From Clostridia bacterium (GTDB lineage Bacteria > Bacillota > Clostridia > Oscillospirales > Acutalibacteraceae), in the NCBI GenBank assembly GCA_017618135.1, contig JAFZUV010000001.1, forward strand, positions 1,627 to 65,626: a DNA stretch of 64,000 bases. The letters run 5' to 3'. Under the pieces are notes generated by a model. It ran no database searches. It was not told the origin of the DNA and worked only from the letters and a program-made list of their open reading frames with translations. This document shows, piece by piece, positions 2,674-18,552 of this stretch (positions are counted from its first letter, which is position 1; the number at the start of each line of letters is the position of its first letter). Position numbers and translations under genes: made by a program.

Positions 2674-3153
2674 TCAGAGTGTCATTATTATTTGTTTTTT
2701 CCGATTTCGTGCGTAATCGAGGGCTGATAGTGTTCCGCTTTTACGCGTGGCGGGCAGATTTTCCCTGTCATAATAAAAAACGCAAAAATCGCTTATATCT
2801 ATCATGTGCCGGTTTCGCTCTACATACACCGCTTTGCCGGCGCCTTTTTGCTCCTCCGGATAGTATGATTCTTCGTAAAACCGAAAAAGGTAATCCGCAT
2901 AGCTTTCATCTATGACGGGATATTCCGCTCTTATATATATTCGTTTTATATGCGGATATTCTGATTTCAATTCCGTTACAATTTCATAGCACAGGTCGTT
3001 AAAACGGCTTTTGCTCCCGAATAAAAAATCCGACATATTTTTTTCGGTTATCAGTTTTGAGACGATTTTTCTCAACCGTTCTTTCAGCTGCGCTGTTTCA
3101 TTTATTTCACGATGACCGATAAAACAACAAACACGATTATTCATAACACACAC
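2674..3153 (-). CDS. DUF1273/SLOG-family (YpsA-like) protein
   Basis: N-terminal CCFIGHREI motif resembles the DUF1273 (YpsA/YoqJ) GHR signature, at ~155 aa. Assigned from memory of the family motif. Confidence 0.45.
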   Translation of the reverse strand: MCVMNNRVCCFIGHREINETAQLKERLRKIVSKLITEKNMSDFLFGSKSRFNDLCYEIVTELKSEYPHIKRIYIRAEYPVIDESYADYLFRFYEESYYPEEQKGAGKAVYVERNRHMIDISDFCVFYYDRENLPATRKSGTLSALDYARNRKKQIIMTL

Positions 3154-3279
3154 TTCTTTTCAATGTTTTTTTAATTATTATAAATCATACCAAGCTCAAA
3201 GTAAAACATTTTTTATTTTTAGTTCGTTATAATCGCCGTAAATAATTGTTAGAATATCATTAAGAAGCGAGGCGATAAT

Positions 3280-3510
3280 ATGAACACTGAATTTACGGAT
3301 AAATATGTAACCTTGGGTCTGAAAATTGCTTATTACAGAAAGAAGGCTGGTTATACTCAAGAAGTGTTTGCTGAGCTTATTGATAAAAGTGTGAATTTTG
3401 TCGGTCAAGTCGAAGGACCCGGCACAATTAAGGGAGTATCTCTCGAAACGCTTTTTAAGATGGCGCAAGTGCTTAACATACCGCCCTCAAAGCTGTTGGA
3501 GGACGATTAA
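3280..3510 (+). CDS. XRE-family HTH transcriptional regulator (76 aa)
   Basis: LGLKIAYYRKKAGYTQEVFAELIDKSVNFVGQVE is a canonical Cro/C1 HTH. Confidence 0.85.
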   Translation: MNTEFTDKYVTLGLKIAYYRKKAGYTQEVFAELIDKSVNFVGQVEGPGTIKGVSLETLFKMAQVLNIPPSKLLEDD

Positions 3511-3517
3511 AGCATTA

Positions 3518-3548
3518 AAGACTCTCCGCCGCCGGCGGAGAGTCTTTA
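3518..3548. terminator. intrinsic terminator hairpin after the XRE gene
   Basis: Perfect inverted repeat AAAGACTCTCCGCCG/CCGGCGGAGAGTCTTT directly after the stop. Weak U-tract. Confidence 0.45.
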
Positions 3549-3611
3549 AATACCGGGGAAGGGAAAATGTCCGGCATTTTTTGCGGTTATATATTATATA
3601 ATAATATTATA

Positions 3612-3640
3612 CTTGACATCCGTCGGCGTTTTTGTTATAA
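3612..3640 (+). promoter_or_regulatory. sigma-A type promoter with perfect consensus (TTGACA, 17 nt spacer, TGnTATAAT) driving the fibre/giant-protein operon
   Basis: TTGACA at 3612-3617. 17 nt spacer. TGTTATAAT (extended -10) ending at 3640. Predicted TSS ~3647. Confidence 0.65.
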
Positions 3641-3647
3641 TTTGCAC

Positions 3648-3752
3648 AGTAATCTATAAGGGCAAGACTGCAGCGATGTAGTTACGCAAAACTATAGGGA
3701 CTCACTGAGTCAGCCAGTTGCAGATATACTGCACCGGCTGATTATTTTTTTT
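3648..3752 (+). ncRNA. candidate GEMM/c-di-GMP-I riboswitch with terminator expression platform (5' leader of the operon)
   Basis: Leader contains GGGCAAGAC, then a 5-bp hairpin capped by GNRA tetraloop GCGA (CTGCA-GCGA-TGTAG), then ACGCAAAAC. These resemble the conserved GGCAAAC...GNRA...ACGCAAAGC core of GEMM-I. A small hairpin GACTC-ACT-GAGTC follows. Then a terminator: stem CAGCCAG-TTGCAG/CTGCAC-CGGCTG followed by TTATTTTTTTTT (3709-3752). Confidence 0.4.
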
Positions 3753-3794
3753 TCGGCGGCCGGCAATTAGGTAAAAAAGAAAGGGGCGAGGCTG

Positions 3795-4760
3795 TTGAAT
3801 CTTACAAAAAAACAAAAGCGATTTCTCTTCGGTAAGAGTATGTCGCTTACCGCGCTCGCTCTTTTGATAATATTAACCGTAGTGGTAGGCTCCATTATTT
3901 CGCTCGGCTGGTTTGCAAACAGAGATACGGCGGATGCAAACGGAGTTAGCGTTACCGCGAAAGAGGAGCGGTTTGAGCTTGCCGTTTCAGGAGAGCAGGT
4001 ATTGCCGTTTGCCAATGATTCGACAATTATAACCTATCTTAATTCGGTTGCCGGCGGCAGCTACGAAAAACGCGCTTCAACCGAAAGGGAGCACACATCC
4101 ATTCTTTGCAGGGTAATAAATGAAAAACCGCATATTGCCGGCAGTGATGAGTTAGCTCCCGGCGCATTCGGAAGAATAAGCTTCGATATAGTTTTGCAGG
4201 CGGGCGATCCCGTAAGAGATTATGAGATATCGCTTGATTACCTGCCTCTTGATTTAGTCGCCGGTGTTCCTCAGGCGGTAGATAACGCTGACATTGATGA
4301 TCTTAAAGATTTGATTAGCGGTCACATTCTGCTTTTTAACACACGCTCCGCCCTTATAAACGGAGGATACTACTACTCTGACAGGATAACGAACAAAAGA
4401 TTTGTTTTCAGCCCTTCCGAGCATACGCCGAGCGTCGAGTCCGACGGTATTCACTACACGGTTGAGTTTTACTTTATCTGGCCTGCTACATTTGCTCAGT
4501 TGGCTTTGAAGCAAGACAGTCCGAAACTGCATTTGCATCCTGTATTCCAAACCGAGGCGTTGCGGCTTGAAATGCTTAATTACATAATTGAAAATCAAGA
4601 TGAGTTTTTCAGAAATCTCGGCCAGGGCATCAATTTTTCCGCAGAGTCGTTCGAGGAAACCTTTTTTGTAGAGTTGAGCGACGGGTATAATACCGCCGAT
4701 CAGTTCATTGGTGATAAAGCTCATTTTCTTGTGATTTGTTCTACAGTAAATCCGGTGTAA
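3795..4760 (+). CDS. secreted TasA/camelysin-like protein (SipW-cognate-type N-terminus), paralog 1
   Basis: N-term K-rich segment, hydrophobic helix, then LGWFANRDTADANGVSVTAKEE (compare TasA GGGTWAAFND...GTLDLSAKEN). Internal LAPGAFGRISFDIVLQAGDPVRDYEISLDY resembles TasA LKPGDKLTKDFQFENNGSLAIKEVLMALNY. C-terminal YTVEFYFIWPATF resembles TasA IKLQFSFEATQWN. TTG start with AAGGGG RBS. Confidence 0.5.
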   Translation: MNLTKKQKRFLFGKSMSLTALALLIILTVVVGSIISLGWFANRDTADANGVSVTAKEERFELAVSGEQVLPFANDSTIITYLNSVAGGSYEKRASTEREHTSILCRVINEKPHIAGSDELAPGAFGRISFDIVLQAGDPVRDYEISLDYLPLDLVAGVPQAVDNADIDDLKDLISGHILLFNTRSALINGGYYYSDRITNKRFVFSPSEHTPSVESDGIHYTVEFYFIWPATFAQLALKQDSPKLHLHPVFQTEALRLEMLNYIIENQDEFFRNLGQGINFSAESFEETFFVELSDGYNTADQFIGDKAHFLVICSTVNPV

Positions 4761-4779
4761 CGATCCGTAGGAGATATGT

Positions 4780-5541
4780 ATGAAAAACAGATTGAACCCA
4801 AAAGCTTTATTTGATACAAGGTTGTTAAGACCGTTTACAGCGCTTGTATTGGCGTTTGTTTTGCTTACCTTGTCGCTTGTTGCCATCGCGTGGTTTTCTT
4901 ACGTGAGAAGAATGGGCGCGGTGGCTGAAATAACCGACCCTACCGCTATTTTCATAAACGCGGGCAATGCGGAGGATGTGCGGTATCTGGATCTCGGCGG
5001 CATTGATGTTGAAGGTGAGAACAGTTACAAGGATTTTGTTTTCTGCATTCGCGGCAACCATGTAAGCAACTATAAAATTCAGCTTTCCTATACCACAAAC
5101 AACCAATTTGATTATGAGATTTATACTGCGACAATGGTGACCTCACCTGGAGCGGTACCGGCAAATCCCGAAAGCCTTGTGGTATATGATACGCATGACG
5201 GTTCTTCGGGTACGCAGTATTATTATGCCGCCTCGGGCGCTACACCGCTTCCGGGCAGCTTTTTGAATAAAGATACAGGGGCTTCCGAAAAGCTGGCGAA
5301 GAATAACGACAGCTATTATGAGGACACATATACTCCCGGGGGTACAAACAGTACATACGATAACCGCCATAAATACGCAATTCCGCTTTATTGGCACACC
5401 TCGAGCTCTATTTCTCCGGTTATGGACGCAAACTCTGATTTTTGCGACTATTTTATTCTCAGAGTAATTTGGGACAGTAACAGCAGAAACAACAAGGAAA
5501 CGGACATAGTTTACATAGCGGCGAAGAACATTTCTGCTTAG
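4780..5541 (+). CDS. secreted TasA/camelysin-like protein, paralog 2
   Basis: N-terminal anchor then AIAWFSYV (compare CalY GGGTFAYFSD). FVFCIRGNHVSNYKIQLSY aligns with paralog 1 ISFDIVLQAGDPVRDYEISLDY. KYAIPLYWH aligns with HYTVEFYFIW. 20 nt from the upstream gene. Confidence 0.45.
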   Translation: MKNRLNPKALFDTRLLRPFTALVLAFVLLTLSLVAIAWFSYVRRMGAVAEITDPTAIFINAGNAEDVRYLDLGGIDVEGENSYKDFVFCIRGNHVSNYKIQLSYTTNNQFDYEIYTATMVTSPGAVPANPESLVVYDTHDGSSGTQYYYAASGATPLPGSFLNKDTGASEKLAKNNDSYYEDTYTPGGTNSTYDNRHKYAIPLYWHTSSSISPVMDANSDFCDYFILRVIWDSNSRNNKETDIVYIAAKNISA

Positions 5542-5589
5542 CTTATTGATAGTTGTTAATATCTATTTTAGTGAAAGGAGCGCCAAAGT

Positions 5590-6612
5590 GTGAAAATTAT
5601 GAAAATCATAAATACACAAAAGCGATTGATAATCGCCATAGTAGGCTTGGCGCTTATTGCCGCAATAATTTCAGGTGTGGCGCTCTTTGCCGAGTATATA
5701 AAGAGCAGCAGAGCCAAAAGGGTTATCGCGTCATACGGCGACGAGGGCTCGCTATTCTCATCCAATTATCTCGTTATGAACAGCAATACAGCGGTAAACG
5801 TTTATAAAAGAATATTCTATACAGAGAGTGGAGATTCTCCCGTTTCCGGCGGCGTTACCGTCTGTAATTACGCTCAGGGAAACCCCACGCGCGTCTATGA
5901 AAGCGATATAGAGTATGTTCTTACGGCAAGGCTTGTTATGCTCGGAGAATCGGCGGGAATGTATGTCAAGAACAACGCTACCGCGGGGGATGTAGGCGCG
6001 CATACCGTTAGAATAAAGCTTAAGGATTCGGGCACGGTTACTCTTTCTTCTTCAAACCTGTCGCATACCTTTGCGGCTTCAACACTCAGTCACAGGTCGG
6101 CGGTAACCGATATTTGCGACCTTGAATTTGACAGCGGCTTTAAAGACGCCGGATCTCTTTGCCTCTACCTCTGTGCTACTCCTACCGGTTCTCAGGCCGG
6201 CGTTCACACGCTTGACGCGGTATTTACGGTAGCGCTTAACACCGGTGAGGCGCGAAATGTCTGGGAAGGCGAGTTTAACGAAAAGACGAACACAGGGGTT
6301 CCGGCACAGCCCTATTACGATGGATTTAATTATATGATAACCGGAATGGGCAGCGGCAACTGCACGCTTTCCTGGAATAATCAGAAGCTGCAGATAAGTC
6401 AGGTGTTCTTAAGTGAACACGGCCTGACTCCGACTGTCGCGGGCAATCAATCATCGGTAACATTTCCTGTGGATTCGGATATTGTTAACCGCTATGATGT
6501 ACAGTTTTATTATGCTGATTCTTCGGTAACCTTCTCAAGTTGGAGCGAGCTTACCGGAACATCGAGCAGTGACGGATATGTAAAGCTTGTTTATGTAGAA
6601 TCTGCCGAATAG
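5590..6612 (+). CDS. secreted N-terminally anchored protein, probable diverged paralog 3 of the TasA-like set
   Basis: N-term MKIMKIINTQKR + hydrophobic helix + ALFAEYI. S/T/G/N-rich beta-type composition. Same operon, 49 nt gap. Confidence 0.35.
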   Translation: MKIMKIINTQKRLIIAIVGLALIAAIISGVALFAEYIKSSRAKRVIASYGDEGSLFSSNYLVMNSNTAVNVYKRIFYTESGDSPVSGGVTVCNYAQGNPTRVYESDIEYVLTARLVMLGESAGMYVKNNATAGDVGAHTVRIKLKDSGTVTLSSSNLSHTFAASTLSHRSAVTDICDLEFDSGFKDAGSLCLYLCATPTGSQAGVHTLDAVFTVALNTGEARNVWEGEFNEKTNTGVPAQPYYDGFNYMITGMGSGNCTLSWNNQKLQISQVFLSEHGLTPTVAGNQSSVTFPVDSDIVNRYDVQFYYADSSVTFSSWSELTGTSSSDGYVKLVYVESAE

Positions 6613-6639
6613 GCAAAAACTGTTTTAAAGGGTAGAAAA

Positions 6640-9600
6640 ATGGTAAAACACTTAAAATCAAACAAGTTAATAGCATGGTGTACGGTATGCTGCCTTTGCG
6701 CAGCTGTTATCGGCGTTTCATTCGGTTTGTTGACTGTTTTGGCAAACGATTTGCCCGAACAGCCGGCTACGACTGTTGCAATTTCCTCTTCCGATGACTT
6801 GATTACATACTCGCGCGAATACTGGCGGGGAGGGCACAATCCGAACGATACCATACAACTGGCGTTAAGCTCCGGTACCGGCTTCCTTTTGCCGTCCGCT
6901 GATGAGGGATATATTTCCATAGGTAACGATGACCGTCCGTTCAACGGCAAAATTGAAATTGCCGATAATGCAATAAGCAGTTTTATGACCGATGTGTCGC
7001 TTTTCGGTACTGTTACTACCGATATGCGCATTGTAAACGCTTCGGATGTGCCGCGTGAAATTCAGATTGCGCGTATAGAAGAGGCGGATTCTCCGCTTTT
7101 TGCCGCAAGCGTTGTGAAGGGTGCTGTCAACAACACCACCGATTGGCGCGTGTGCTTAAAGCCTGATGACCGTGACTCTGTAAACAAAACGGCTTTCTCT
7201 TTTGCCGGAGCGATAGGAAGTATTGCGGCGGAATGCAAAGTCGGCTTCGATTTTACGCACGATTCGGTTTCGTATTTGAGTGTTCCGGCAAACGCGGTCA
7301 GTGCCTCGGATATAGGGCTTATATGCGGCAGTCTCGGCGCTGATGCAGAGCTTACCGTTAAAATAACATCGACAAACTCCTTTAATATAACCTCTTCCGG
7401 CGGTCACGCGGGCGGTATAGCGGGCATAGTTGCGGCAGGGGCTAAGATTATATTGGGCGATAATTATACATCTCCCGCGAATGTTACCGCTTCCGCATCA
7501 GGCAAGTACGCGGGCGGAATTGCGGGTTACGCCGCTGATTCCGAAATAGACCTTAATTCATATACCGCGACCGTCTCAAAAACCGTATCGGGCGCGGCAG
7601 GCGCCGGCGGTGCGTATGGATACTATTTAAGCACTGTGGGCAACGGCACCGGGGCGAGTGCCGGCGTTCGTACATTCGAGCTTGCCGGTATCAATACGGA
7701 TTCCGGTTTTGTTATTGCGCGCGGTACCGATGCCGGTGCGTTTATAGGAATGCTTGAAGCGCAGACCGATATTACCGTTACCGAAACGGGAGCTGTTGTA
7801 TCAGATTCGACCTTCACAAAACAGGTCAGTTTTACGGGTGGTACAAATCGCGGCGGTATTATAGGTAAATACGCAAATAATAATCTCATAAACACATTGG
7901 ATATACATAATGCAAAGGTAAAGGTGCTTGCAAGCAGCGGTACTACTTCCTATAGCGGCGGCGTAGTGGGAAATCTTGGAAGTACCGGCCCCGTTTATGC
8001 AAAAATCGGCGATTTTCGCCTTTCGGTAGCAGGGTCCGCGGCAATGCAAGGCGGTCTTCTCGGCACCGCCAACTCCACCGGCAGTTTTATAGATGTTCAA
8101 AATCTTATAGATATCGACGGTTCGACTACTGCGGGTCTTGTGAATTACCTTAATGCCGGAGTTCTGAGAGTTTCGGGGACTACCGATCTTGCAGGCGCCA
8201 CGCATGGTACGGCACAGTTGGTAAGACAGAGGGGTAACGCTTTGGTCTATGCTTTAGGCTCCGGCTCAGACGCGAGCTGGACGCTCAAGCGCGGCTCAGG
8301 TCTGGTCGACGATATCGGTGACTGGGGCGAGATATTAAGGCTTTCCACTGCTAACGGTCTTGCGGAAAGCGATTTCTTTACGGTGAATATGGGCGCGCAT
8401 AGCGTGACTGTGACAGGTCATGTTCAGAATATGGGCACTATCAAGGATTTTGTAAAAACCGCGCTCAATATTCAGATAAACTATCAGGACTGTGGCTCTC
8501 TGCTGCTTTCCTCCGCTTCACGCAGCAGTACGATACTTGCTTCAAATCTTTCTATAACCGCAGATATTGATTTAAGCGGAACCGGCATAGAGTCGCTTAC
8601 AAAGGACAACGGCGAAAACGGCGTTTACACCGGCTCGTTTAACGGCAACACCCATAAGATAACACTTGCGATCGGCGAACCGTACGGAAAAAGCGGCTCC
8701 ACTACGCTCAGCGCGCCCACGAACATAGGCAACAACAATTACGGTACTATTATTGATCATTATTATTCAGGTCTTTTCGCAAAAATGCAGAACAATTCGG
8801 TAAGTAATCTTACGCTTGACGGATATATATCTCTTTGCGGTTGTAGAAATGTTGATTATAAGGTTGGAGCGGTAGCGGCGAGCATTTCGGGTACCACCAC
8901 GCCGCTGACCCTTTCCGGGATCGATTCCAAAACGGATATATATCTTTATACACAAGGTACCAAAACTACAACTATGAACATTTTCGCCGGCGGCGCGATA
9001 GGATATATCGAACCCGAGACCGGCGGCACAGTTTCCATATCCAATTGTACTTTTGAAAGCGACATTACATTAAAGAGCACCATTGCTCACGGCAACGCGG
9101 TAGGCGGCGCCATAGGCAAGGTGGATTCCGTAAGCAGTCTGACCTTCGACTTTGACGATATCACAATAGGCGGTACATACAACAACAGAGTTACCGGCTC
9201 TTCGGAGTACGCAGGTCATAAATACGGAGGACTTATCGGTTATATCGCCCCCAACTCCGGCTCCTTTACCCGCAATGTTACGCTCAATAATATTACCGTT
9301 ACAAACGATGTTTCCATAACATCGGGCGTTAAATGCACCACCCGCTCGGGCGGCGCCGGTGCGTTTATCGGCGGCGAGTGGGAGGATACCAATGTTACTA
9401 TCGGTACATTAGGCGATACCGACGGTGTTATTATAGGTGAAACAGCCGCAGGTACCGGTCCTTCAATAACCGTAACCTCCGCAGATTCAAATAAGCCGAC
9501 GGTTTCAGCGCTTGTTCAGAAGGCTACGGGACATTGGACTGTAAATCATACGAAGGTAAACAAGGCTTCCGTTACCGCGTCGTCAAGCTCGGTGTTCGGT

Positions 9601-12600
9601 TTTCTTGTGGGAGACGGGGTATGTCACAGCAGCAGCACCGCCGCTTCATCCACGCTTTATCTTGATTTGATAAGCGACGGATATGATATAGCGAACACTG
9701 TGTTCAGCGGCACTTTTGATGTGTTTGACGAGGTAGTGGGATTTTCCGCGGTAATGTCAAGCAATATAGAAGATAACGGGCAGGCGATAGTGTCTATACG
9801 CACGCCGTCCGGCGCGGCGCTTATTATGAATGGTTCCGCCTGCAATACATATCAGAATCAAACGACATACGGTAAAACCACCAAAACTTCAAATTCAAAC
9901 ACAAGATACTACTATAATCTTGACCTTATCCGCGAGAAGGCAACCAAGAGTGACGCCGAAAAGATGTTGCTTTTAAGCCTTTATAAATACGCCCACAGAA
10001 CCATACGAAACAACGGTTATTTTAACAACGCATACAGTAACAGGATATCGGGTAGCTGCGATATGTCGGGGCTTTCCTACTATCCGGTAGATGCTTCGGG
10101 TATAACCATACAAAACGCGAGTATTAAATTCTATAATGATGAAATAGAGGCGGGCGAAGGCGGCTCAGGTGACAGTGACGGCGCCGTGCGTTCCACCCGT
10201 ACGGACAGTCCGAGAACACAGCATTATATGATGCATGAATCGGTATTCCGCAATTACACCGGGGATTTGACCGTCAGCGGACTTCACCTTGCAGGAAATG
10301 TAAGTAACCAACACGGCGGGGATGACAGCGGTTTCCTTATCTGTGGAATGCTCGGGAACACAAACGATACGGCGAGAATTTCCATTTCGGGCGTTGTTCT
10401 TGACGGTGCATATATAGTGCGCTCAGGCAGTTATGCACCGCTGCTTATAAACAGGATAGGTAAAAATGTAAAGTTTGAGCTTGATGGAGTTGCCGCTATT
10501 GCCGGCGCCGGTACTAATATGTATCCCACAACAACTACGGCTGTGGCCTCGAGCCTTATAGGTGATGTCGGCTCGGATACCGCCATAAACATCAATCTTA
10601 CCTTCTCGGATATCCGCCTTGATGCGAGAACCGCGACAGGAGGACTCAGCGGTCTTTCCACCGCTTACGGAACAAGCCGTTCTATTTTTGACAGGGCAAC
10701 GCTTCTTAATTCCTTCAGATTTTTGAACGGAAGTATGGGCGAGTACAATTATACTTACAGCGAGGACTGGACTTCCTCTCAGCATCATGCAACCTACGGC
10801 GAGGAGGTTACAACTTCGGTTGAATATGCCGGTAGGCAGGATCATTACTACGATGATATTACGCATTATACGCATCCGACTGATCCCACCGGTGCTTCGG
10901 CATACGATTTCTCGTCGGGCTTTTTGCCGTATGTGTATGTAGACTACGATTCCGCAACGCTATATCACGAAATAAAGGTAAATGTTAAGGATGTTAATCT
11001 CACATCCGGCTGCGGTCAGTATAATGACCCTTATATAATTACCGACGGCGCGATGATAGCTACCGCCGCGAAGATTTTAAGCGGCAGTCCCGATAACGGT
11101 ATAGAAATACAATTACCTACTGATGTAGGCAGTGAGGATATGTGGTGTACATCACTGTCTACCCACGCGGTTTATACCTATAACGGAACAAACTTTGTAC
11201 TTAAATCAGATGGCAGTGACCCTAAGACGCTCGAAGTTGTCCGCACCTATTTGGCAGGCGCGTATTACAGCATTACGGCGGCGGAGATAGAGCTTCCCGC
11301 AACATATGTGGGACTGGGTTCGCTTACTGATTGGAGCAATACTACAGACTATGAGTGTAAATATGCGTTCAGGGGTGTAATTGTCGGCAACCGTAATATT
11401 ATTGTCAACCACTCGGCCAATCCGCTTATTAAAACAGCTAACGGATGTGTTGTAAAGGAAGCCACGGTGACGACCGACGCGTCGATTACCATAAGCCAGA
11501 ATTCCGTTCTGCCCTTCCGGTATGATAACGCGGGCTGTGCTTCATACGGAGCGGTAATAGGCCAGGTTATGGGCGGAGACAATATTATTGATCATGTGGG
11601 AGTAGGCTTTACCGGTACCGCCATTACGGCTGACTCTACAAATTGTAAAAGACTGGTTCCCGTAGGCGGCTATGTAGGTGTTATCGTAAACGGCGGCGTA
11701 GTATTCAAAAATATGGATAATGATGTTGACGCCACCGGTTTGCCCGCGGCAAAGTGCGCGTATATCGAGGACGCCGGCTGGCTCTATGTAAATCCGATAA
11801 TAGGCAGAGTAATAGCAGGTTACGCCTTTAACGAGGCTAACGCTTATGCCCGGCATTCGACCAAGCTTGATAACGGCAATAAGAACTACGACATTTCGGA
11901 TCTCAATCCGAATGATACAAAGCTTACGGTAAACGCTACCTCTTCAAGTAATTACACCGTTTCAGCGCCAAACGCACAATCGCTTTATATACTTTCGTGC
12001 ATTGTAAATTCCGGCGCAGGAAGCGCCGCGTACAACGCGAGTACCGAGCAGGATTACGCGGCGATCGCCAATACTCCGTGGATAGCTTACAGGAATTACA
12101 CCTGCACCCGTTGCGCCGATTACGATGAGGTAGGACATTCTGCCGCGGCTGACGGCGACTTTGCCACCGTAAGCGCTCAGGATGTTTACAGCGGCAGTAA
12201 CAAGACACCTTATATAATTAGGAACTATACGCAAAGCTCATCGGCTGTTTTCAAGGCGCGAAGCATTTGCGGCAATTCGGTTATAAATGAAATATCGCTT
12301 TCGGCGGGCACTTATAATTTAGCCAACAGCTTCAGGGGTATAGGCGGTATTTATACGAATAATACCGCGTGCAGGATACAGTTTAAGAAGCTCACCGGAA
12401 ACGGTGCCGAGCTTAACCTTAATATGCGCTATCTTGAATACAACCACGAAAGCGGCAACCAGGGTACTAAATCCAATAATCAGATTGAAAACTATAAGCC
12501 GTTTGCGGGCGCTGGATTCGGATTTTTCAATAATATGTATCTGAGCGGTTTTTCCGCGTCAAGCAACACAAACAGCGTTAAGAACTTGACTGTGTCGGGC

Positions 12601-15600
12601 AGTGTGTTCTACGATATAAAGAAACTGGCTGACGGTTCGGCTATAAAATATGCCTACGGTTGGCATAATTACAATAATTTGACAGGCTATTATCCCGATG
12701 TTGCCGATAGGATTGAAGCCGGAACGATACTTAATGTCGGCGGTATCGCCGGTACAACCAATAACAGCTCGTATCTGACTGGCGTAACGCTCAGCGGGCT
12801 GAGTGTTGAAGGAGCTAAGAATACCGGCGGATATATAGGCTACAGCGTTTCAAAGCATCTTGTCGCGGAGGGTTGCTCTACAAGCGGAATCAGTGTAAAC
12901 GGCGGCTTTTCCGCAGGCGGCATTATAGGAGGACTCAGCGGCAGTCAAATAAACGGCAACAGCGGGGCGGGCGCTAACTTTACCGTAAAGGGTACCTCCG
13001 AAACTCCTTCTACAATAAGCTTTACCAATATAAATGTTAAGGGCGAGCCAAGCTGCGCTAAAACCGACTTTAAAGATTTTTTACAAATGTTCCACTGCGC
13101 CGGAGGTCTTGCGGGTTATGTCAGCACGGGTAATTCAAATACCGCAACGGTTCAGTATGTAAGCGTTCAAGGTGGTTCAATTACCGCAACCAATAAAGAA
13201 AAACGCCCAAGCGATATGAGATACAAGATAATATTAGGCGGTATGTTCGGCAGACTTGAAGCAGCCTGTGTTAACTTCTCTGATTCTTCGGTCACCGGCG
13301 TTACGATTGACGGAAACACCTGTGGCGGACTTATCGGCTGTTCGAGAAACAAGTTAAACGGTAGCATTACAAACATATCGGTAACCGGCGGAACGGGCAA
13401 ATCGATCACGGCTACAAATATGGTCGGCGGCATTCTCGGATTTTACTATGGCGGCGACGCTTTAAGTCTCCAGGTATCCGCGTTCACCCTTGAAAACTAT
13501 TCGATTATTTCTTCGCACGACGCGGAAAAAGCGAGTGCCGGCGGCCTTGTGGGAACCCTTACAACGGGCGGCAACACGGTATTTAATATTTACGACAGTA
13601 TAATTCGCAACTGTACCGTATCGAGAAGAGCAACATATGTTACAGGCGACAACCAACTTTTAGGCGTAGGCGGTATGTTCGGCGCGCTTTCCGCGTCCAA
13701 CGGTAATGTCAGGGGTCACAATATTCTTATTGACGGCGTCAGTGTTGTAAACAACGGTGGTAACAAGGCGCCCGGTATGATGATAGGTACAAACAACGGC
13801 TTGTCGGTTAAATTTACCGGTGTGTCCATACAGGGCGGAACCTCCGCCACCGTGCCGGTTGTGGGAATTGATTTAAACTCTTCCGGTGTTTACGGCTCGT
13901 CCGGGTATGTGGTTATGGCTGACTTTGACGGCGACTGTAAAGCGCTTTCGCACAATGAATCCGAATCAAGCTTTTATAACTCAACAAACGACCTTGCGGC
14001 GGCAAGCCCGTTTGTTACGGTAAATCCGTATTCGAGCGTTGGCAACAACCTGCTTAACCTTACGGGGGACGGCGTATCGTCAACCGTAGCGGGACTTCCC
14101 ATTCAGGAAATAATCGCGGGCGATATAAGATACAACTATGCTTCGGGTTACAGGTCTGCTTTCTCGACGAGTCACCTTTCAACCTATAATTATGAGCAGA
14201 ACACCTCGTTTACCGATGATTTTGCCGTGCTTATAGTTGACGATATCAGCCGTCTTAACACAACGAATATGATAAACGCCTATATAAATCTTATGGCGGG
14301 TACACAGTATGACTATACTTCGGATCTTTCCAATGTGTTTGGCGTGAGCATATATAAGATGGTATATGATGAAGGCGAAGGCAAGTTTGTCAAATCAAAT
14401 GAAGCGGCAAACCTTAAGCGGCTGGGCGGTCAGTTCTATATGAATATCGACAATGTTGATACCGCCGGCAATATGTTCTCGCTTATAGATGTTAAATACT
14501 ACGACCCCAATAATACAAGTAAAACCGCGTATCACCTTTATATACCGGTTCTTGTAAAGAAACTGTTGACATTTGATTTCGTAATTGCAACGGGCACCGG
14601 AACTAACTACGAGCGCGCGTGGTATGACGACCGCTTCGGTAAACCGCTTATGGAAAATCTCGGCACTCCGGCAAGCGTATACTTCAAATATACATACTTA
14701 CGCTCGAAGGAGGAATGGGAAGCGGCGGCAAACGGCGGTGAAAATCTGCTGCGCAACTATGATAAAAAGCTTACCCTTTCAAAATCAAGCGCAATTCCCG
14801 ATCTTCCGGGCACTACAACTCTCGTGCTTGTAGACGCAAGTCGGGGAAGCAAACCGTATTACGCGAGCTTCTCAGATGTATACTCGGCGGGCGTGCTTAA
14901 CCTTTCAGGCTTTAAAGAAACGCTCGGCGACAATACAAGCACGGCGTTTACCCCGATTAATCTTGCGGATATGTTGAATCTCACAGCCGCCGCCGACGCG
15001 GAAGGTACACTCGTTTCCTGCGCCGAGAATGTGGCTACGGTGAAAGCGCAATTAAACGGTGTTGAAACCTTCTTCCGCGTAGCGACTGACAGTGACTCGG
15101 AGCTGCAGCACTATACCGTTTCGGTAGGACTGAACAATAATGGCAGTGGAGTTATAGAGCTTGATGAGCCGTATTACATTTCCTTCTTTACGGAGTCTAC
15201 CGTAAGTAATACCGTATATCACTATACGATAAGCGCTCCCGCAAGCTTTAATGATCCTTCCAATCCGTCTCGTATTGCGGATGCGGATAAGCTGCAAAAC
15301 CGCGAAGGCACCGCTCACCTGATACTCGGAAATATATTTGTTCAAACCGGAGTATCTTTAACTACGACTCCGGCGAATACAGAGATGTCGGTTCTTACAA
15401 ACAACCATACGCTCGGAATAAATATGGGTACTACCGTAACTCTTGCGGCGTCACTTAAAAATGAGGTTCAGGGTTATCTCGGCACAAATTCCGGCATAAA
15501 TGTTTTCCATAGCTTTATGTTAAAGCTCACCCGTACGGATGAATCGGGAGCCAAAAAGGTTATTGAAGGTTCGCCCTCCGTCAGCGGCACATATACGATA

Positions 15601-16512
15601 TCCTCTGCTAACGGAACCGTTGCGGCAACTAATCCGGCGGATAATCTTATAAATGTTACCAGCGGCTACGCGGAGGTATGTAGTGCAAATGTAAACCAGA
15701 ACATAAACGCATATCTCGTAAATGGCGGCGGTGCCGTGATAAACGCTACCGTTTCTATGGATTATCAGACTGACGGTGCCGTGTCTGCTCAGTTCCCGAA
15801 CCGTGAGGATCCCATGAACACAACTATCGGTACTACCGCGTCTTGTACATCTAATATTGCGTATGACCGGGCGGGTACTTCGTACAGTAAGATTGCGGCA
15901 GGAGCTTCTGATTCTGCGGGTCACTCATACTACTGTAGAATTGATAATAAAAAAGCAAAGCTATATTATAATGTAGAGAGCGATATATTTGTGGGCGATT
16001 ACGGACCGCTCGGCATTAACCCGCTTGACTCCGGCGCCGCAACAAGAGTGCCCTTCTCAACGCTGGCGATTTACGATATATCCGATATCGAGCAGGTGGC
16101 GGCGGGCTACGATACGGTAAGGGTGGCAATCAGCCTTTATAAAAAGACCGACGGATATTCCGCGAGGCTTAACATCCCCACATATATGAGCTCGGTACAG
16201 ATGAAGAATTACACCGAAGAGACCGGGTACTCGGAGAGCAGAACCAATCCCACCGAGTTTGTATTCATCCTGCCGCGCTCTGCGGTAGAGCGTGCTTCCG
16301 CTACGGCTACTTCGCTTGAAATACCCATAGATTATACCGTCTTTACGGGCGCTGAGTTTGAGAGTGCGGGACTTGAATATTCAAATTACAAAATATCAAT
16401 TTCCGCCGAGCTGTTAGACAGCAGCGACCCTTCTTCTCCGCTTATTGCCTCTCAGGCTGAAAATTATCTCATATATACAAATGCCCGTATATTGCCTGAC
16501 TTTATAGATTGA
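6640..16512 (+). CDS. giant (3290 aa) secreted/N-anchored surface protein built from GLUG-like GG[ILVM]xG beta-helix repeats. No LPXTG, dockerin or other C-terminal anchor
   Basis: Uninterrupted 9.87 kb ORF. Signal/anchor MVKHLKSNKLIAWCTVCCLCAAVIGVSFGLLTVLAND. At least 18 repeats such as AGGIAGY, GGIIGKYANNNLINTLDIHNAKV, GGVVGN, GGLLGT, GGAIGY, GGLIGCSRNKLNGSITNISVTG, GGILGF, GGLVGT, GGMFG. These fall in two blocks (~7357-9190 and ~12697-13840) separated by low-repeat S/T/N/Y-rich regions. 28 nt after paralog 3. Confidence 0.8.
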   Translation: MVKHLKSNKLIAWCTVCCLCAAVIGVSFGLLTVLANDLPEQPATTVAISSSDDLITYSREYWRGGHNPNDTIQLALSSGTGFLLPSADEGYISIGNDDRPFNGKIEIADNAISSFMTDVSLFGTVTTDMRIVNASDVPREIQIARIEEADSPLFAASVVKGAVNNTTDWRVCLKPDDRDSVNKTAFSFAGAIGSIAAECKVGFDFTHDSVSYLSVPANAVSASDIGLICGSLGADAELTVKITSTNSFNITSSGGHAGGIAGIVAAGAKIILGDNYTSPANVTASASGKYAGGIAGYAADSEIDLNSYTATVSKTVSGAAGAGGAYGYYLSTVGNGTGASAGVRTFELAGINTDSGFVIARGTDAGAFIGMLEAQTDITVTETGAVVSDSTFTKQVSFTGGTNRGGIIGKYANNNLINTLDIHNAKVKVLASSGTTSYSGGVVGNLGSTGPVYAKIGDFRLSVAGSAAMQGGLLGTANSTGSFIDVQNLIDIDGSTTAGLVNYLNAGVLRVSGTTDLAGATHGTAQLVRQRGNALVYALGSGSDASWTLKRGSGLVDDIGDWGEILRLSTANGLAESDFFTVNMGAHSVTVTGHVQNMGTIKDFVKTALNIQINYQDCGSLLLSSASRSSTILASNLSITADIDLSGTGIESLTKDNGENGVYTGSFNGNTHKITLAIGEPYGKSGSTTLSAPTNIGNNNYGTIIDHYYSGLFAKMQNNSVSNLTLDGYISLCGCRNVDYKVGAVAASISGTTTPLTLSGIDSKTDIYLYTQGTKTTTMNIFAGGAIGYIEPETGGTVSISNCTFESDITLKSTIAHGNAVGGAIGKVDSVSSLTFDFDDITIGGTYNNRVTGSSEYAGHKYGGLIGYIAPNSGSFTRNVTLNNITVTNDVSITSGVKCTTRSGGAGAFIGGEWEDTNVTIGTLGDTDGVIIGETAAGTGPSITVTSADSNKPTVSALVQKATGHWTVNHTKVNKASVTASSSSVFGFLVGDGVCHSSSTAASSTLYLDLISDGYDIANTVFSGTFDVFDEVVGFSAVMSSNIEDNGQAIVSIRTPSGAALIMNGSACNTYQNQTTYGKTTKTSNSNTRYYYNLDLIREKATKSDAEKMLLLSLYKYAHRTIRNNGYFNNAYSNRISGSCDMSGLSYYPVDASGITIQNASIKFYNDEIEAGEGGSGDSDGAVRSTRTDSPRTQHYMMHESVFRNYTGDLTVSGLHLAGNVSNQHGGDDSGFLICGMLGNTNDTARISISGVVLDGAYIVRSGSYAPLLINRIGKNVKFELDGVAAIAGAGTNMYPTTTTAVASSLIGDVGSDTAININLTFSDIRLDARTATGGLSGLSTAYGTSRSIFDRATLLNSFRFLNGSMGEYNYTYSEDWTSSQHHATYGEEVTTSVEYAGRQDHYYDDITHYTHPTDPTGASAYDFSSGFLPYVYVDYDSATLYHEIKVNVKDVNLTSGCGQYNDPYIITDGAMIATAAKILSGSPDNGIEIQLPTDVGSEDMWCTSLSTHAVYTYNGTNFVLKSDGSDPKTLEVVRTYLAGAYYSITAAEIELPATYVGLGSLTDWSNTTDYECKYAFRGVIVGNRNIIVNHSANPLIKTANGCVVKEATVTTDASITISQNSVLPFRYDNAGCASYGAVIGQVMGGDNIIDHVGVGFTGTAITADSTNCKRLVPVGGYVGVIVNGGVVFKNMDNDVDATGLPAAKCAYIEDAGWLYVNPIIGRVIAGYAFNEANAYARHSTKLDNGNKNYDISDLNPNDTKLTVNATSSSNYTVSAPNAQSLYILSCIVNSGAGSAAYNASTEQDYAAIANTPWIAYRNYTCTRCADYDEVGHSAAADGDFATVSAQDVYSGSNKTPYIIRNYTQSSSAVFKARSICGNSVINEISLSAGTYNLANSFRGIGGIYTNNTACRIQFKKLTGNGAELNLNMRYLEYNHESGNQGTKSNNQIENYKPFAGAGFGFFNNMYLSGFSASSNTNSVKNLTVSGSVFYDIKKLADGSAIKYAYGWHNYNNLTGYYPDVADRIEAGTILNVGGIAGTTNNSSYLTGVTLSGLSVEGAKNTGGYIGYSVSKHLVAEGCSTSGISVNGGFSAGGIIGGLSGSQINGNSGAGANFTVKGTSETPSTISFTNINVKGEPSCAKTDFKDFLQMFHCAGGLAGYVSTGNSNTATVQYVSVQGGSITATNKEKRPSDMRYKIILGGMFGRLEAACVNFSDSSVTGVTIDGNTCGGLIGCSRNKLNGSITNISVTGGTGKSITATNMVGGILGFYYGGDALSLQVSAFTLENYSIISSHDAEKASAGGLVGTLTTGGNTVFNIYDSIIRNCTVSRRATYVTGDNQLLGVGGMFGALSASNGNVRGHNILIDGVSVVNNGGNKAPGMMIGTNNGLSVKFTGVSIQGGTSATVPVVGIDLNSSGVYGSSGYVVMADFDGDCKALSHNESESSFYNSTNDLAAASPFVTVNPYSSVGNNLLNLTGDGVSSTVAGLPIQEIIAGDIRYNYASGYRSAFSTSHLSTYNYEQNTSFTDDFAVLIVDDISRLNTTNMINAYINLMAGTQYDYTSDLSNVFGVSIYKMVYDEGEGKFVKSNEAANLKRLGGQFYMNIDNVDTAGNMFSLIDVKYYDPNNTSKTAYHLYIPVLVKKLLTFDFVIATGTGTNYERAWYDDRFGKPLMENLGTPASVYFKYTYLRSKEEWEAAANGGENLLRNYDKKLTLSKSSAIPDLPGTTTLVLVDASRGSKPYYASFSDVYSAGVLNLSGFKETLGDNTSTAFTPINLADMLNLTAAADAEGTLVSCAENVATVKAQLNGVETFFRVATDSDSELQHYTVSVGLNNNGSGVIELDEPYYISFFTESTVSNTVYHYTISAPASFNDPSNPSRIADADKLQNREGTAHLILGNIFVQTGVSLTTTPANTEMSVLTNNHTLGINMGTTVTLAASLKNEVQGYLGTNSGINVFHSFMLKLTRTDESGAKKVIEGSPSVSGTYTISSANGTVAATNPADNLINVTSGYAEVCSANVNQNINAYLVNGGGAVINATVSMDYQTDGAVSAQFPNREDPMNTTIGTTASCTSNIAYDRAGTSYSKIAAGASDSAGHSYYCRIDNKKAKLYYNVESDIFVGDYGPLGINPLDSGAATRVPFSTLAIYDISDIEQVAAGYDTVRVAISLYKKTDGYSARLNIPTYMSSVQMKNYTEETGYSESRTNPTEFVFILPRSAVERASATATSLEIPIDYTVFTGAEFESAGLEYSNYKISISAELLDSSDPSSPLIASQAENYLIYTNARILPDFID

Positions 16513-16524
16513 TTTTATATGAAT

Positions 16525-16560
16525 AACCGCCGAATCGAAAAAGATCCGGCGGTTGTTTTT
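16525..16560 (+). terminator. intrinsic terminator closing the 4-gene operon
   Basis: CCGCCGAATC-GAAAAA-GATCCGGCGG hairpin followed by TTGTTTTT, immediately after the giant ORF stop. Confidence 0.6.
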
Positions 16561-16705
16561 AACTAATATAGCAAACTGCACAAAACAGCCAAGAAATAGT
16601 TGTTTAAACCGTCATATTTTGACTATTTATTTTATTGGTACCTCATGATAAAATAAATCATAGCGTATATAAGAATGAGAAAGATGAATAAAGGATGACG
16701 ATGAT

Positions 16706-17332
16706 TTGATTAAAGGCTTTTTTAAGAAACGGTATTTTTTGCCGCCTTTCCTGGTTTTAGCAACAAATCTGACAGTAAGCTTTTTGACTCGCCCGTTTAT
16801 TGACGCGGCAGCTACCTGCTTAGTAACTACCGTTGACAGGAAGATTCCATTTGTTCCGGAATTTATCTACATATATGTTTTTGCGTTTGTTCAGTGGCTT
16901 ATATGTATTCTGGCGGTTATGATAAAGGATAAAGAAAAATCCTTTTATTATTGCGGCGGAATAATATTCGGAAATCTTATGTCGGGCATAGTGTTTTTGG
17001 TGTTTCCCACAATTATGTCCATTCGTCCGGAGTATACGGGCGGAGGTTTAACAGGGGAGATTGTCAGGTTTATTTTTGCGGCGGATACCCCGCCGATGAA
17101 CATATTTCCGTCTATTCATTGTCTTTTCAGCTGGGGCTGTATGCGAATGATATGCGCCTTAGGCTCTGTGCCGAAAGCTTTGAAGGTTTTTAACGCTGTA
17201 TTTTCGGTACTGGTATTTTTATCGGTTTTGTTTGTAAAACAGCATGTGGTATATGATATCCCCGCGGGAATATTTGCTTTTGAGGCAGGTCTTTTCTTGA
17301 CGAGAAAACTATTTCTGCGAGTAAAAGTGTGA
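16706..17332 (+). CDS. PAP2-family membrane phosphatase-like protein
   Basis: Multi-TM. PAP2-like motifs SIRPEY, FPSIH (PSGH-like), KQHVVYDIPAG (SRxxxxxHxxxD-like). TTG start. Confidence 0.45.
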   Translation: MIKGFFKKRYFLPPFLVLATNLTVSFLTRPFIDAAATCLVTTVDRKIPFVPEFIYIYVFAFVQWLICILAVMIKDKEKSFYYCGGIIFGNLMSGIVFLVFPTIMSIRPEYTGGGLTGEIVRFIFAADTPPMNIFPSIHCLFSWGCMRMICALGSVPKALKVFNAVFSVLVFLSVLFVKQHVVYDIPAGIFAFEAGLFLTRKLFLRVKV

Positions 17333-17345
17333 GGAGGAAACAAGT

Positions 17346-18521
17346 TTGGAAGCATATGCGTTACAGTCTTTTATAAGTGTTTATCTTTTGTTTGAATTAG
17401 CTCTTTTGGTTTTTTCGGGATATATCTTTCTGCAAACATCAAATGATGTTATGAAAAATACCGAACGCGCAGGATTTAAATGTTTTATTGTAGCATTTCA
17501 GATTTATACTATTCTTACCTGTGTTCAAACCCTGCAAGAATACGGCATTATTGATGTGTCGGTTGGTTTGTATAAGGGCTTATGCTTTGCATTGCTGTTG
17601 ATTGTTATTGTTAATGCGTTTTGCTATTACAATGTTTTCATACAGCATTTTGATATGGGCTTAAACCGCAGCTATAAGGCGGTTGCTTTAGGCGCTTTGC
17701 CTTTGTTGGCAACAATCATTCTTCTAACGGTTTCGCTTTTTAACGGAATTGTATTTGATGTAGATAAGAACATATCTTTTGTAAGAGGTAAATGGTATTA
17801 TCTGATACACATAATGGTATGCATTTATTTTATATCCATAATAAGGCGTTCATTTCTCAGAGCAAGAGCGCTTGGCACCGCGCGTGCAAAGCGGGAAGTG
17901 CTTGGTATATTAGGCCTTACCGCTTTCCTTATATTATGGGTTATAATTGACGATGTTCTCAAAGGAACCACTGTTATACCGGTTGTTATATTTGCGGTAC
18001 TGCTTTATCTGTTTATAAATTCACAAAAGGAAAATATTTATACTGATGCGCTTACGGGAATGAACAACCGCAGAAAGGCGGAAAACTATCTGGGCGAAGA
18101 GGTAAAAAACACTTCGGAAAAAGAGCCTGTATATTTGTTTATGGGTGATATTAACGGCTTTAAGGAAATAAACGATAAATACGGCCATTATGAGGGTGAT
18201 TGTGCGCTTATGATTTTTTCCGACGCGGTCAAAAAGAGCGCCACCGCTTATAACGGCTTTGCGGCACGCTACGGAGGCGACGAGTTTGTTTGGGCATGGC
18301 GCCCGATTAAAAACGGAGATGTTGACCCCGAAATGGTTATGAGCGATATACGCCACAGAGTTGAGGCTGAATGTAAGGCTCAGAACAAGAAATATATAAT
18401 ATCTCTTTCAATAGGTCATGTATTATGTACTGATCCTAAGATAAGCGCAATACAGTATTTAAGGGAGGCGGACAGAAAAATGTACGCCGATAAACAGGGA
18501 TATTACAGAACAAAAAAATAA
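17346..18521 (+). CDS. membrane-bound diguanylate cyclase (7-TM sensor region + GGDEF)
   Basis: ~7 TM helices, then GGDEF domain: LTGMNNRR, MGDINGFKEINDKYGHYEGD, RYGGDEFVWAW (intact GGDEF). Confidence 0.85.
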   Translation: MEAYALQSFISVYLLFELALLVFSGYIFLQTSNDVMKNTERAGFKCFIVAFQIYTILTCVQTLQEYGIIDVSVGLYKGLCFALLLIVIVNAFCYYNVFIQHFDMGLNRSYKAVALGALPLLATIILLTVSLFNGIVFDVDKNISFVRGKWYYLIHIMVCIYFISIIRRSFLRARALGTARAKREVLGILGLTAFLILWVIIDDVLKGTTVIPVVIFAVLLYLFINSQKENIYTDALTGMNNRRKAENYLGEEVKNTSEKEPVYLFMGDINGFKEINDKYGHYEGDCALMIFSDAVKKSATAYNGFAARYGGDEFVWAWRPIKNGDVDPEMVMSDIRHRVEAECKAQNKKYIISLSIGHVLCTDPKISAIQYLREADRKMYADKQGYYRTKK

Positions 18522-18524
18522 GTA

Positions 18525-18551: not shown

Positions 18552-18552
18552 T

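Follow-up and report, generated by a model that had tools for sequence, protein, structure and literature searches.

An operon for four orphan, predicted exported proteins behind a c-di-GMP-I riboswitch in a Clostridia bacterium: a candidate surface adhesion apparatus

Riboswitches of the cyclic di-GMP (c-di-GMP)-I class control adhesin and pilus genes in Firmicutes, for example those of C. difficile surface proteins and pilA1. Both c-di-GMP riboswitches before adhesin genes and SipW-dependent fibres are already known. Among the latter, TapA combines the donor strand of TasA with a different body (PMC9674648), and in the sipW-bsaA-bsaB-bsaC operon TasA-like subunits are encoded together with a larger partner (PMC11580942). 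Paralogs of BsaA and TasA are often encoded in one operon with large surface proteins, and the authors of that study suggested heteropolymers (PMC11580942). Here we describe an operon on contig JAFZUV010000001.1 of a rumen "Clostridia bacterium" metagenome-assembled genome (MAG), within a 64-kb window (the whole stretch of DNA analyzed), whose numbering is used throughout. The operon is a single transcription unit on the plus strand, consisting of a promoter, a c-di-GMP-I riboswitch, four open reading frames (ORFs) that we name P1, P2, P3, and the giant, and a terminator. We propose that it encodes a c-di-GMP-induced surface adhesion apparatus that would follow the logic of the TasA and Bsa systems with unrelated subunits, a reading to which, as a whole, we give about even chances.

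The operon leader was matched by the RF01051 covariance model over its entire length (model positions 1 to 87 of 87) at 50.2 bits, against a gathering score of 35 (E = 7.5e-07), while the related GGC variant RF03167 reached 43.6 bits, below its threshold of 59. The original prediction had recognized a riboswitch-like leader but missed its specific identity as a c-di-GMP riboswitch, which supplies the regulatory logic of the operon. The aptamer starts 10 nucleotides (nt) past the -10 box, and 70 nt separate its end from the start codon. Its expression platform is an intrinsic terminator (dG, -18.9 kcal/mol; z = -3.19) that is also present in the minimum free energy structure of the whole leader. 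Because the 5' arm of the terminator hairpin (3708-3723) includes the Rfam-aligned 3' arm of the P2 stem of the aptamer (3709-3719), the aptamer and the terminator are mutually exclusive, and ligand binding should therefore block termination, as in an ON switch. This call is based on the observation that the Rfam-aligned arm directly overlaps the terminator. The consensus fold in Rfam is not recovered by ViennaRNA, whose fold of the aptamer alone is therefore uninformative as a proxy for the ligand-bound state. The same layout of aptamer and terminator was observed in the leader of a related locus (L001). Without ligand, the leader would form the terminator using the 3' arm of the aptamer P2 stem; c-di-GMP binding would lock the aptamer, and read-through would follow. 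The operon would then be ON at high c-di-GMP, that is, in the sessile, adhesive state. Judged from its sequence, a c-di-GMP-ON transcription unit is very probable.

c-di-GMP-I riboswitches were also found immediately before the orthologous cassettes of L001/L002, L005, and L017, and four distinct lineages have one upstream of the cassette. Loci without a riboswitch often have genes for c-di-GMP enzymes or receptors adjoining the cassette, a genomic context that supports c-di-GMP as the predicted ligand. The flanking genes encode GGDEF (L003), EAL (L005, L008, L009, L011, and L018), HD_5 (L018), and PilZ (L005) proteins.

Two of these loci carry a further c-di-GMP-I riboswitch. In L005, a second riboswitch (57.9 bits) is followed by two genes for proteins with the motif STYAWF[VT].N (287 and 323 amino acids [aa]), and two more such paralogs are encoded on the opposite strand. 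The middle is variable in all four; the end is [VI]W[LM]EG.D..C.NN in three, whereas the 249-aa paralog has YDGNDSE there. The pattern resembles that of multicopy major-subunit genes. In L008, a riboswitch (50.1 bits) precedes a 475-aa ORF rather than the cassette. This ORF contains the sequence GGDEF and was read by eye as a GGDEF-type cyclase, so that the riboswitch would control c-di-GMP synthesis itself.

Gene order in the cassette is conserved far beyond the window. A word-index search returned 18 homologs of P1 and 82 of P3, and an exhaustive profile search yielded 711 representatives of P3 at 50% identity, none of which had a Pfam domain or an informative name. Loci were fetched around P3 homologs, a genome scan with a 17-sequence subset of P3 included, and orthologs were called with hidden Markov models (HMMs) built in-house. 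The order P1-P2-P3-giant, with a giant of > 3290 aa, was kept in 19 of 19 of these P3-baited loci, down to 25% P3 identity, so that the synteny check suggested with the original prediction had a positive outcome. The carriers include the cultured Ruminococcus flavefaciens YAD2003 as well as MAGs of Ruminococcus, Mageeibacillus, Oscillospiraceae, and Lachnospiraceae from ruminant guts. None of the four proteins matched a Pfam or NCBIfam family, and their database names are "hypothetical" (locus tags J5659_00040-00055 and protein accessions MBO4692772-MBO4692774 in GenBank). A different arrangement was seen in L088, L091, L092, L097, and L098, in which a P1-like gene is directly followed by a giant-family ORF with no P2 or P3 between them.

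P1, P2, and P3 each have a basic N terminus, one hydrophobic helix, and an aromatic motif, just as the original prediction described them. Cleavage is predicted (the slash marks the site) at G38/W39 in P1, A37/W38 in P2, and A34/E35 in P3, and small residues at -3 and -1 are conserved in each family right before invariant aromatics. The P1 consensus,.S.G/WFA.N..V.A.GM.V, obeys the (-3,-1) rule, with a small residue at -1 in 30 of 30 sequences. Small residues were likewise found at -1 in pvyA/WF...R of P2 (A, S, or G in 14 of 14), in ..yA/eyTkSsrAKRVvA...FSSNYL of P3 (52 of 52), and in STYA/WFvmN.TV of EX (8 of 8), a related "STYAWF" protein family encoded near the cassette in some relatives. 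The general form, small-aromatic-small/aromatic-polar, resembles the SipW site of TasA (GTWA/AFNDT); the hydrophobicity pattern ooΦΦ/ΦΦoooooΦ (Φ, hydrophobic; o, other) is common to P1, P2, P3, EX, and TasA and equals that of TasA through position +8. Within each family, conservation is highest in the segment immediately past the predicted site. In P1 this is the extension WFA.N..V.A.GM.V......FELAVSG and in P3.[YF]T.S.RAKRVVA......FSSNYL. The orthologs of P2, which occupy the same position in all loci, conserve the motifs GGIDV...YKDFVFCIRG...YKIQLSYTTNNQF.YEIY and NKETDIVYI.AK.

The families thus share an N-terminal module, comprising the end of the hydrophobic segment and about 10 to 30 residues beyond. 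For this module, hhalign returned probabilities of 96.9% (EX-P1), 88% (P1-P2), 83% (EX-P2), and 68% (EX-P3), with lower values for P2-P3 (47%) and P1-P3 (39%); similarity was confined to the N-terminal 20 to 50 columns. No mutual similarity of the globular parts of P1, P2, and P3 was detected by hhalign, also with richer profiles, and pairwise BLASTP among the three proteins gave E values of >= 0.099. The view that they are three tandem paralogs was therefore not borne out. A match of P2 to DUF6978 (E = 0.11) was treated as noise, like other matches at E > 0.01. A second P1-like gene was observed upstream of the regular P1 in L009; its product lacks the AWF cleavage motif and keeps the core motifs GHILFFENR..., YWIWAEYYEQL, and YYDSGDKLI.

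Membership of the small proteins in the TasA/camelysin family, which the original prediction proposed, found no support in any direct test. PF12389 (Peptidase_M73) is carried by all genuine TasA proteins in the same database, but it was not matched at E <= 1 by P1, P2, P3, or the giant, nor by the 17 relatives and the EX and WLEG proteins scanned (for the latter, see below). Against a TasA profile built from 54 PF12389 proteins, hhalign probabilities were 1.1% for P1, 0.2% for P2, 10.2% for P3, and 1.0 to 2.6% for EX, with only the signal end aligning. The structural models of P1 and P3 do not reproduce the jellyroll of TasA (PDB 5OF1, 5OF2, and the fibre structure), and no HMM, profile, or fold method supports the internal echoes of TasA that had been read in P1. 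That P1, P2, and P3 are true, highly diverged members of the TasA/camelysin jellyroll family, forming a donor-strand fibre that carries the giant, is very improbable. In its favor are the TasA-like cleavage motif and hydrophobic pattern, the best (nonsignificant) hhalign register against TasA, which is always at the signal end, a match of the TapA model to one P3 relative (E = 2.8e-4), and the link of SipW to the cassette in relatives. However, the globular parts are not detectably related even to each other. The proposal that the signals are of a SipW-cognate-like type fared better, being supported by the cleavage pattern, hydrophobicity, and SipW genes in the clusters of relatives, although HMM matches were below threshold. 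The EX protein of R. flavefaciens is named "SipW-cognate class signal peptide" in UniRef, whereas our own TIGR04088 scan of it was empty.

AlphaFold2 (AF2) monomer models of P1 and P3 (predicted local distance difference test [pLDDT] scores of 71.4 and 87.6, respectively) are beta-sandwiches. The body of P1 has helical inserts, while that of P3 is all-beta and was read as one or two immunoglobulin (Ig)-like sandwich domains. The 15 to 20 residues after the predicted site are conserved yet have a pLDDT of < 50, a combination that fits a flexible donor or docking extension in the models without proving one. Structural match lists were dominated by Csu, CupE, Fim, Pap, and CFA/I subunits or chaperones and by archaeal AbpA and CanX, and the closest folds of P3 include the pilus chaperones EcpB and CfaA. 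A Foldseek search of all PDB chains with the P1 model gave no match at E <= 1e-3, and PDB sequence searches with P1 and P3 profiles found no relatives.

In both models the hydrophobic segment forms a long helix that runs through the putative cleavage site. The resulting "lollipop" of N-terminal helix and beta-sandwich, together with a common N terminus on divergent globular domains, would also fit type IV pilin-like or archaellin-like proteins in which P1, P2, P3, and EX retain the helix as a filament core, and one EX paralog (in L005) matches Arch_flagellin at E = 0.0035 (18.1 bits against a cutoff of 29.5). However, these families have no class III signal: a conserved Gly before the hydrophobic stretch and a Glu at +5 are missing, and the basic leaders are anywhere from 5 to 40 residues long. 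The conserved positions cluster at the C-terminal end of the helix, a region without conservation in pilins, and no PilB/TadA-type ATPase, platform protein, or prepilin peptidase was found in any neighborhood, nor any prepilin-peptidase-like motif in the window. We rejected type IV pilins and archaellins as candidates and consider such an origin extremely unlikely. Sortase pili and LPXTG adhesins were also rejected: the four proteins lack LPXTG and a C-terminal hydrophobic segment, the window has no TLxTC motif, and no sortase Pfam families occur in the annotated neighborhoods.

The giant was originally described as an N-anchored GLUG-repeat protein, and neither part of this description was confirmed. 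Its one N-terminal hydrophobic segment is an ordinary Sec signal with a predicted cleavage at A35/N36 (VLA/ND), and AxA-type sites in 12 of 12 inspected N termini (the giant and 11 orthologs, all resembling ordinary Sec signals) make cleavage likelier, so that the protein is probably not N-anchored. It has no C-terminal anchor and no LPXTG; something else must therefore retain the giant if it is attached to the cell. No Pfam family, and hence no GLUG (PF07581), was matched at E <= 1. What is visible is a GLUG-like pattern, with 16 GG[hydrophobic]2G motifs, two clusters of GG..G modules (residues 258-867 and 2034-2348), and a recurring module, F.G.FNG.NH.I...GLFA...NL.L.G...GG..G, that resembles GLUG modules. 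The N-terminal region is conserved and the composition rich in G, S, T, A, and N. Orthologs are colinear, with 27 to 48% identity over > 3000 aa and hundreds of invariant residues in a 10-ortholog alignment, which indicates a defined architecture rather than a variable repeat array. Even with the 10-ortholog profile, no relatives were found in Pfam, NCBIfam, or PDB sequences; the one match in the PDB sequence searches with the P1, P3, and giant profiles and the giant itself, to tryptophan halogenase (E = 3.4e-4, about 110 residues), was judged spurious.

A composition rich in G, S, T, and N and repeated beta-solenoid-like modules are typical of surface adhesins. The giant could instead be a secreted enzyme, toxin, or matrix modifier with P1, P2, and P3 as co-secreted cofactors. 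Such a function would suit a colinear, nonrepetitive protein with hundreds of invariant residues in which no adhesin domain was detected by Pfam, NCBIfam, or PDB searches. Invariant in all 10 orthologs are Q1194, H1195, M1198, H1199, F1203, and N1205 (TQHYMMHESVFRN) as well as G1457, G1459, Y1461, and P1464, with C1458 nearly so (GCGQYNDPY), and the arrangements Q1194-H1195...M1198-H1199 and G1457-C-G-x-Y-x-x-P1464 could be catalytic or metal-binding sites. The same clusters (1194-1205 and 1457-1464), for which no matching family was found, could also be beta-helix cap motifs, no catalytic family was matched anywhere in the giant, and the GG..G and F.G.F.G.NH.I modules with their G/S/T/N-rich surroundings look beta-solenoid-like. 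Likewise, c-di-GMP induction and the EAL, GGDEF, and PilZ neighborhoods fit adhesion or biofilm formation. We therefore regard an enzymatic or toxic role as quite unlikely and favor an adhesin.

As the original prediction stated, no signal peptidase gene was found in the window: a phmmer search with a SipW-type query (E <= 10) found no match in the 64 kb, a generic S26 motif expression was negative, and the 20 flanking ORFs annotated with Pfam include no peptidase. A link to SipW emerged from relatives. In L009, from a Ruminococcus sp. MAG, an archaeal-type signal peptidase I (TIGR02228, 90.5 bits against a cutoff of 51.85; best match the SipW model, E = 3.8e-31) adjoins WL, a membrane protein with the motif [IV]WLEG[ND]DP.C, and the two genes are divergent from EX-P1-P1'-P2-P3-giant. 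With WL (WLEG) as bait, > 409 metagenome relatives were found, of which 80 loci from rumen and human gut were analyzed; these form 40 clusters at 90% identity and 11 at 80%. In 75 of the 80 loci, including all 27 long ones (>= 18 kb), the gene right behind WL is SipW-like, and 3 of the 5 exceptions are truncated within 140 nt of WL. At least one gene of the set EX, P1, P2, P3, and giant lies within 10 kb in 24 of the 27 long loci; without EX, the count is 20 of the 27. A further link, through two S26 genes in L019, was rejected: they lie about 6 kb from the cassette among genes for RNase HII and a ribosome-biogenesis GTPase, and neither matches the SipW query.

In L067, one strand carries an EAL-like gene, WL, SipW1, AAA+, a gene for a protein of about 800 aa, SipW2, TM170, P1, P2, P3, and the first part of the giant; an EX gene lies upstream on the other strand. 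The human-gut contigs L087 and L090 have EX-WL-SipW1-SipW2-P1-P2-P3-giant on one strand, an order given without individual mapping of the AAA+ and ~800-aa genes. The AAA+ protein is anchored by a transmembrane segment and McrB-like (Walker A motif GISGTGKTS; match to PDB McrB at E = 0.0019). The ~800-aa protein carries DUF2357 in the precomputed Pfam annotation of L018, a divergent lineage whose cassette is preceded by AAA+, DUF2357, and SipW. Some versions of the DUF2357-type protein reach about 990 aa because the second SipW-type peptidase is fused to their C terminus, and this peptidase is complete (phmmer E of about 1e-20 over residues 766-968). The AAA+/DUF2357/SipW block may be either an assembly machine for fibre genes or an embedded McrBC-like defense module.

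More speculatively, the cassette would be the cargo and subunit half of an undescribed Gram-positive surface-fibre system whose machinery is co-encoded in Ruminococcus-like relatives, an extension of our reading that we consider unlikely. The machinery would comprise the WLEG membrane protein, the membrane-anchored McrB-like AAA+ NTPase, and either one SipW-type peptidase or two, of which one is often fused to the ~800-aa DUF2357 protein. It would process and polymerize the non-TasA proteins EX, P1, P2, and P3 via their shared N-terminal module and thereby display the 3300-residue adhesin. Such NTPase-assisted, SipW-dependent assembly would differ from that of TasA fibres and of sortase, type IV, and chaperone-usher pili. 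It would occur widely among Oscillospiraceae of the rumen and human gut and, in some lineages, be switched on by c-di-GMP directly.

For the cassette itself, we suggest the following sequence of events. All four products would be exported, the giant via its ordinary Sec signal and with release from the membrane. P1, P2, and P3 would carry a distinct TasA-like signal class, tied in the genomes of relatives to SipW-like peptidases, and would be cut at the TasA-like site, for which a SipW-type peptidase, where present, is the probable enzyme. This export step is fairly probable. More tentatively, cleavage would expose the conserved flexible N-terminal extensions on Ig-like beta-sandwich bodies, and these would dock by beta-strand complementation into each other, into the conserved N-terminal region of the giant, or into both. 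In this way, the 3290-residue beta-solenoid-like adhesin could be held at the cell surface by a short heteromeric stalk or anchor. In relatives, the additional multicopy EX ("STYAWF") products could form a longer fibre as major subunits. Assembly along these lines is possible, though we hold it with less confidence than export.

The main rival to such an assembly is a nonpolymeric accessory platform, in which P1, P2, and P3 stay uncleaved in the membrane or, once cleaved, remain associated with the wall and form a stoichiometric complex for the export, folding, processing, or noncovalent retention of the giant. A single copy of each gene in fixed order beside the giant everywhere suggests a fixed stoichiometry, a giant without its own anchor needs a retention partner, and most cassettes, including that of the window, have no adjacent SipW. 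The helix that continues through the putative cleavage site in the AF2 models and the chaperones among the closest folds of P3 also fit. However, small residues at -3 and -1 before invariant aromatics are a hallmark of a cleavage site rather than of a membrane anchor, the peak of conservation just past the site is hard to explain as a mere membrane exit, and the same N-terminal module is present on multicopy EX proteins that resemble major subunits. A nonpolymeric complex therefore seems unlikely to us, while the TasA/Bsa-like apparatus stays our preferred interpretation.

Several observations weigh against this apparatus. No SipW, WLEG, EX, AAA+, or DUF2357-type gene was detected in the 64-kb window (E <= 10), so the genome either encodes these components elsewhere or does without them, and the 80 WL loci come from related Ruminococcus-like organisms, which makes the SipW association phylogenetically narrow. 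The window proteins did not match TIGR04088 at E <= 1 (cutoff, 19 bits), and among 40 P3 relatives 3 reached 10.5 to 14.4 bits (residues 14-32), also below the cutoff. A signal that obeys the (-3,-1) rule could equally be cut by the housekeeping signal peptidase I. The fold matches of P1 and P3 are generic Ig-like sandwiches, with low Z scores for P1, and the structural models cover these two proteins and not P2. The adhesin role of the giant is argued from composition and motifs, and the riboswitch is absent from most orthologous loci, being present in a minority.

The boundaries of the operon are well defined (Table 1). As originally predicted, four same-strand ORFs separated by short gaps (19 to 48 nt) follow a perfect sigma-A promoter with an extended -10 element, the sole perfect match within 3000-17500, and a terminator closes the operon (dG, -21.7 kcal/mol; z = -5.56; none of 200 shuffles folded equally well). 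Directly upstream of the promoter, a perfect 13-bp inverted repeat serves as the terminator of a small XRE-type helix-turn-helix (HTH)-like ORF; as this ORF ends with its own terminator, the operon is an independent transcription unit. A gene for a hybrid histidine kinase lies further upstream. Two genes directly follow the operon terminator, one for a PAP2-like membrane protein and one for a GGDEF diguanylate cyclase, and a gene for an HD_5/HD (HD-GYP-like) protein is located 9 kb downstream of the operon. With the cyclase as its neighbor, a c-di-GMP-ON operon could be part of a local feed-forward circuit. SpoIIE and spore-germination genes are present in the window, which therefore derives from a sporulating Firmicute.

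Table 1. Positions of features in the window and in related loci (L numbers; positions in relatives are those of the respective locus)
Feature	Position	Strand	Basis or remark
Hybrid histidine kinase gene	1067-2572	-	
C terminus of XRE-type HTH-like ORF and its terminator	~3300-3548 (ORF ends ~3510)	+	Read by eye
Perfect 13-bp inverted repeat	3520-3549		AGACTCTCCGCCG/CGGCGGAGAGTCT
Sigma-70/sigma-A promoter	3613-3641	+	TTGACA, 17-nt spacer, TATAAT, TG extended -10; 12/12 consensus
c-di-GMP-I (GEMM-I) aptamer	3651-3725	+	RF01051 covariance model
Expression platform	3708-3756	+	Intrinsic terminator hairpin (3708-3743), then U9 tract
P1 gene	3795-4760	+	ORF, 321 aa, TTG start
P2 gene	4780-5541	+	ORF, 253 aa
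P3 gene	5590-6612	+	ORF, 340 aa, GTG start; NCBI start 5599, 337 aa
Giant gene	6640-16512	+	ORF, 3290 aa
Operon-closing intrinsic terminator	16521-16563	+	Hairpin 16521-16558, then U-rich tail
PAP2-like and GGDEF genes	16706-18521	+	
HD_5/HD (HD-GYP-like) gene	25289-27367	-	
L067, AAA+/DUF2357-type block	11384-16149		
L038, AAA+/DUF2357-type block	11635-16408		
L018, AAA+/DUF2357-type block	1-2479		
L009, AAA+/DUF2357-type block	976-3241	-	
L005, second riboswitch and STYAWF[VT].N genes	2729-6737		
L008, riboswitch and 475-aa ORF	1860-3618		ORF at 2191-3618
L009, second P1-like gene	6933-7961		
L088, L091, L092, L097, L098, P1-like gene and giant-family ORF	~16550-20729		

Literature searches on c-di-GMP riboswitches with TasA or Ruminococcus, on SipW with Ruminococcus, and on uncharacterized clostridial adhesins returned no description of the cassette; the original prediction likewise had not recognized the arrangement as a described one. 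Undescribed in the literature searched is the combination of four orphan families, among them that of the conserved giant of about 3300 aa, with a TasA-like signal class on non-TasA Ig-like subunits and, in relatives, a dedicated SipW/AAA+/DUF2357 block. Oscillospiraceae and Ruminococcaceae are among the most abundant fibre degraders of the rumen and human colon, and their means of attachment, whether to substrates or among themselves, are poorly known beyond cellulosomes. The cassette is widespread: P3 forms 711 clusters at 50% identity, and metagenomes of the rumen and human gut contain > 409 WLEG relatives. The riboswitch offers a direct handle on the condition of expression, namely, high c-di-GMP, the SipW link in relatives gives a testable hypothesis of processing, and the cultured carrier R. 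flavefaciens YAD2003 makes experiments possible.

Compared with chaperone-usher and other donor-strand pili (Csu, CupE, Fim, Pap, and CFA/I) and with archaeal AbpA and CanX, the cassette likewise encodes Ig-like sandwiches with an N-terminal extension. However, the scores of P1 and P3 against chaperone-usher and archaeal TasA-like pili are weak to moderate, the fold is generic, and there is no sequence similarity. An usher or periplasmic chaperone is also impossible in a monoderm. With GEMM-I-controlled adhesins and pili, the operon shares a riboswitch in the 5' leader, a termination platform, and a predicted ON response; the known cases are sortase-anchored adhesins or type IV pili, whereas the genes here belong to no described family.

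The closest parallels are with SipW-dependent operons. Like B. subtilis tapA-sipW-tasA, the cassette encodes secreted beta-sandwich proteins whose signals end in small-aromatic-A/aromatic-polar, with differing bodies behind a common N-terminal segment as in TapA and TasA (PMC9674648), is tied in relatives to an archaeal-type signal peptidase, and would act in the sessile, biofilm state. In contrast, P1, P2, and P3 have no detectable sequence or fold homology to TasA, sipW is missing from the operon and the window, three distinct subunit families are joined by a 3290-aa partner, and a c-di-GMP riboswitch takes the place of SinR control (PMC9674648). C. perfringens sipW-bsaA-bsaB-bsaC (PMC11580942) is likewise a clostridial operon of small subunits with SipW-type signals and a larger secreted partner encoded last. 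There, sipW is encoded in cis and no riboswitch was reported, BsaA and BsaB are remote TasA homologs, whereas P1, P2, and P3 are not, and the partner BsaC is a 70-kDa von Willebrand factor A (VWA) protein rather than a GLUG-like giant of 3290 aa. If N-terminal strand complementation does operate here, the principle of TasA and Bsa fibres would also hold for subunits with unrelated folds and for displaying giant adhesins.

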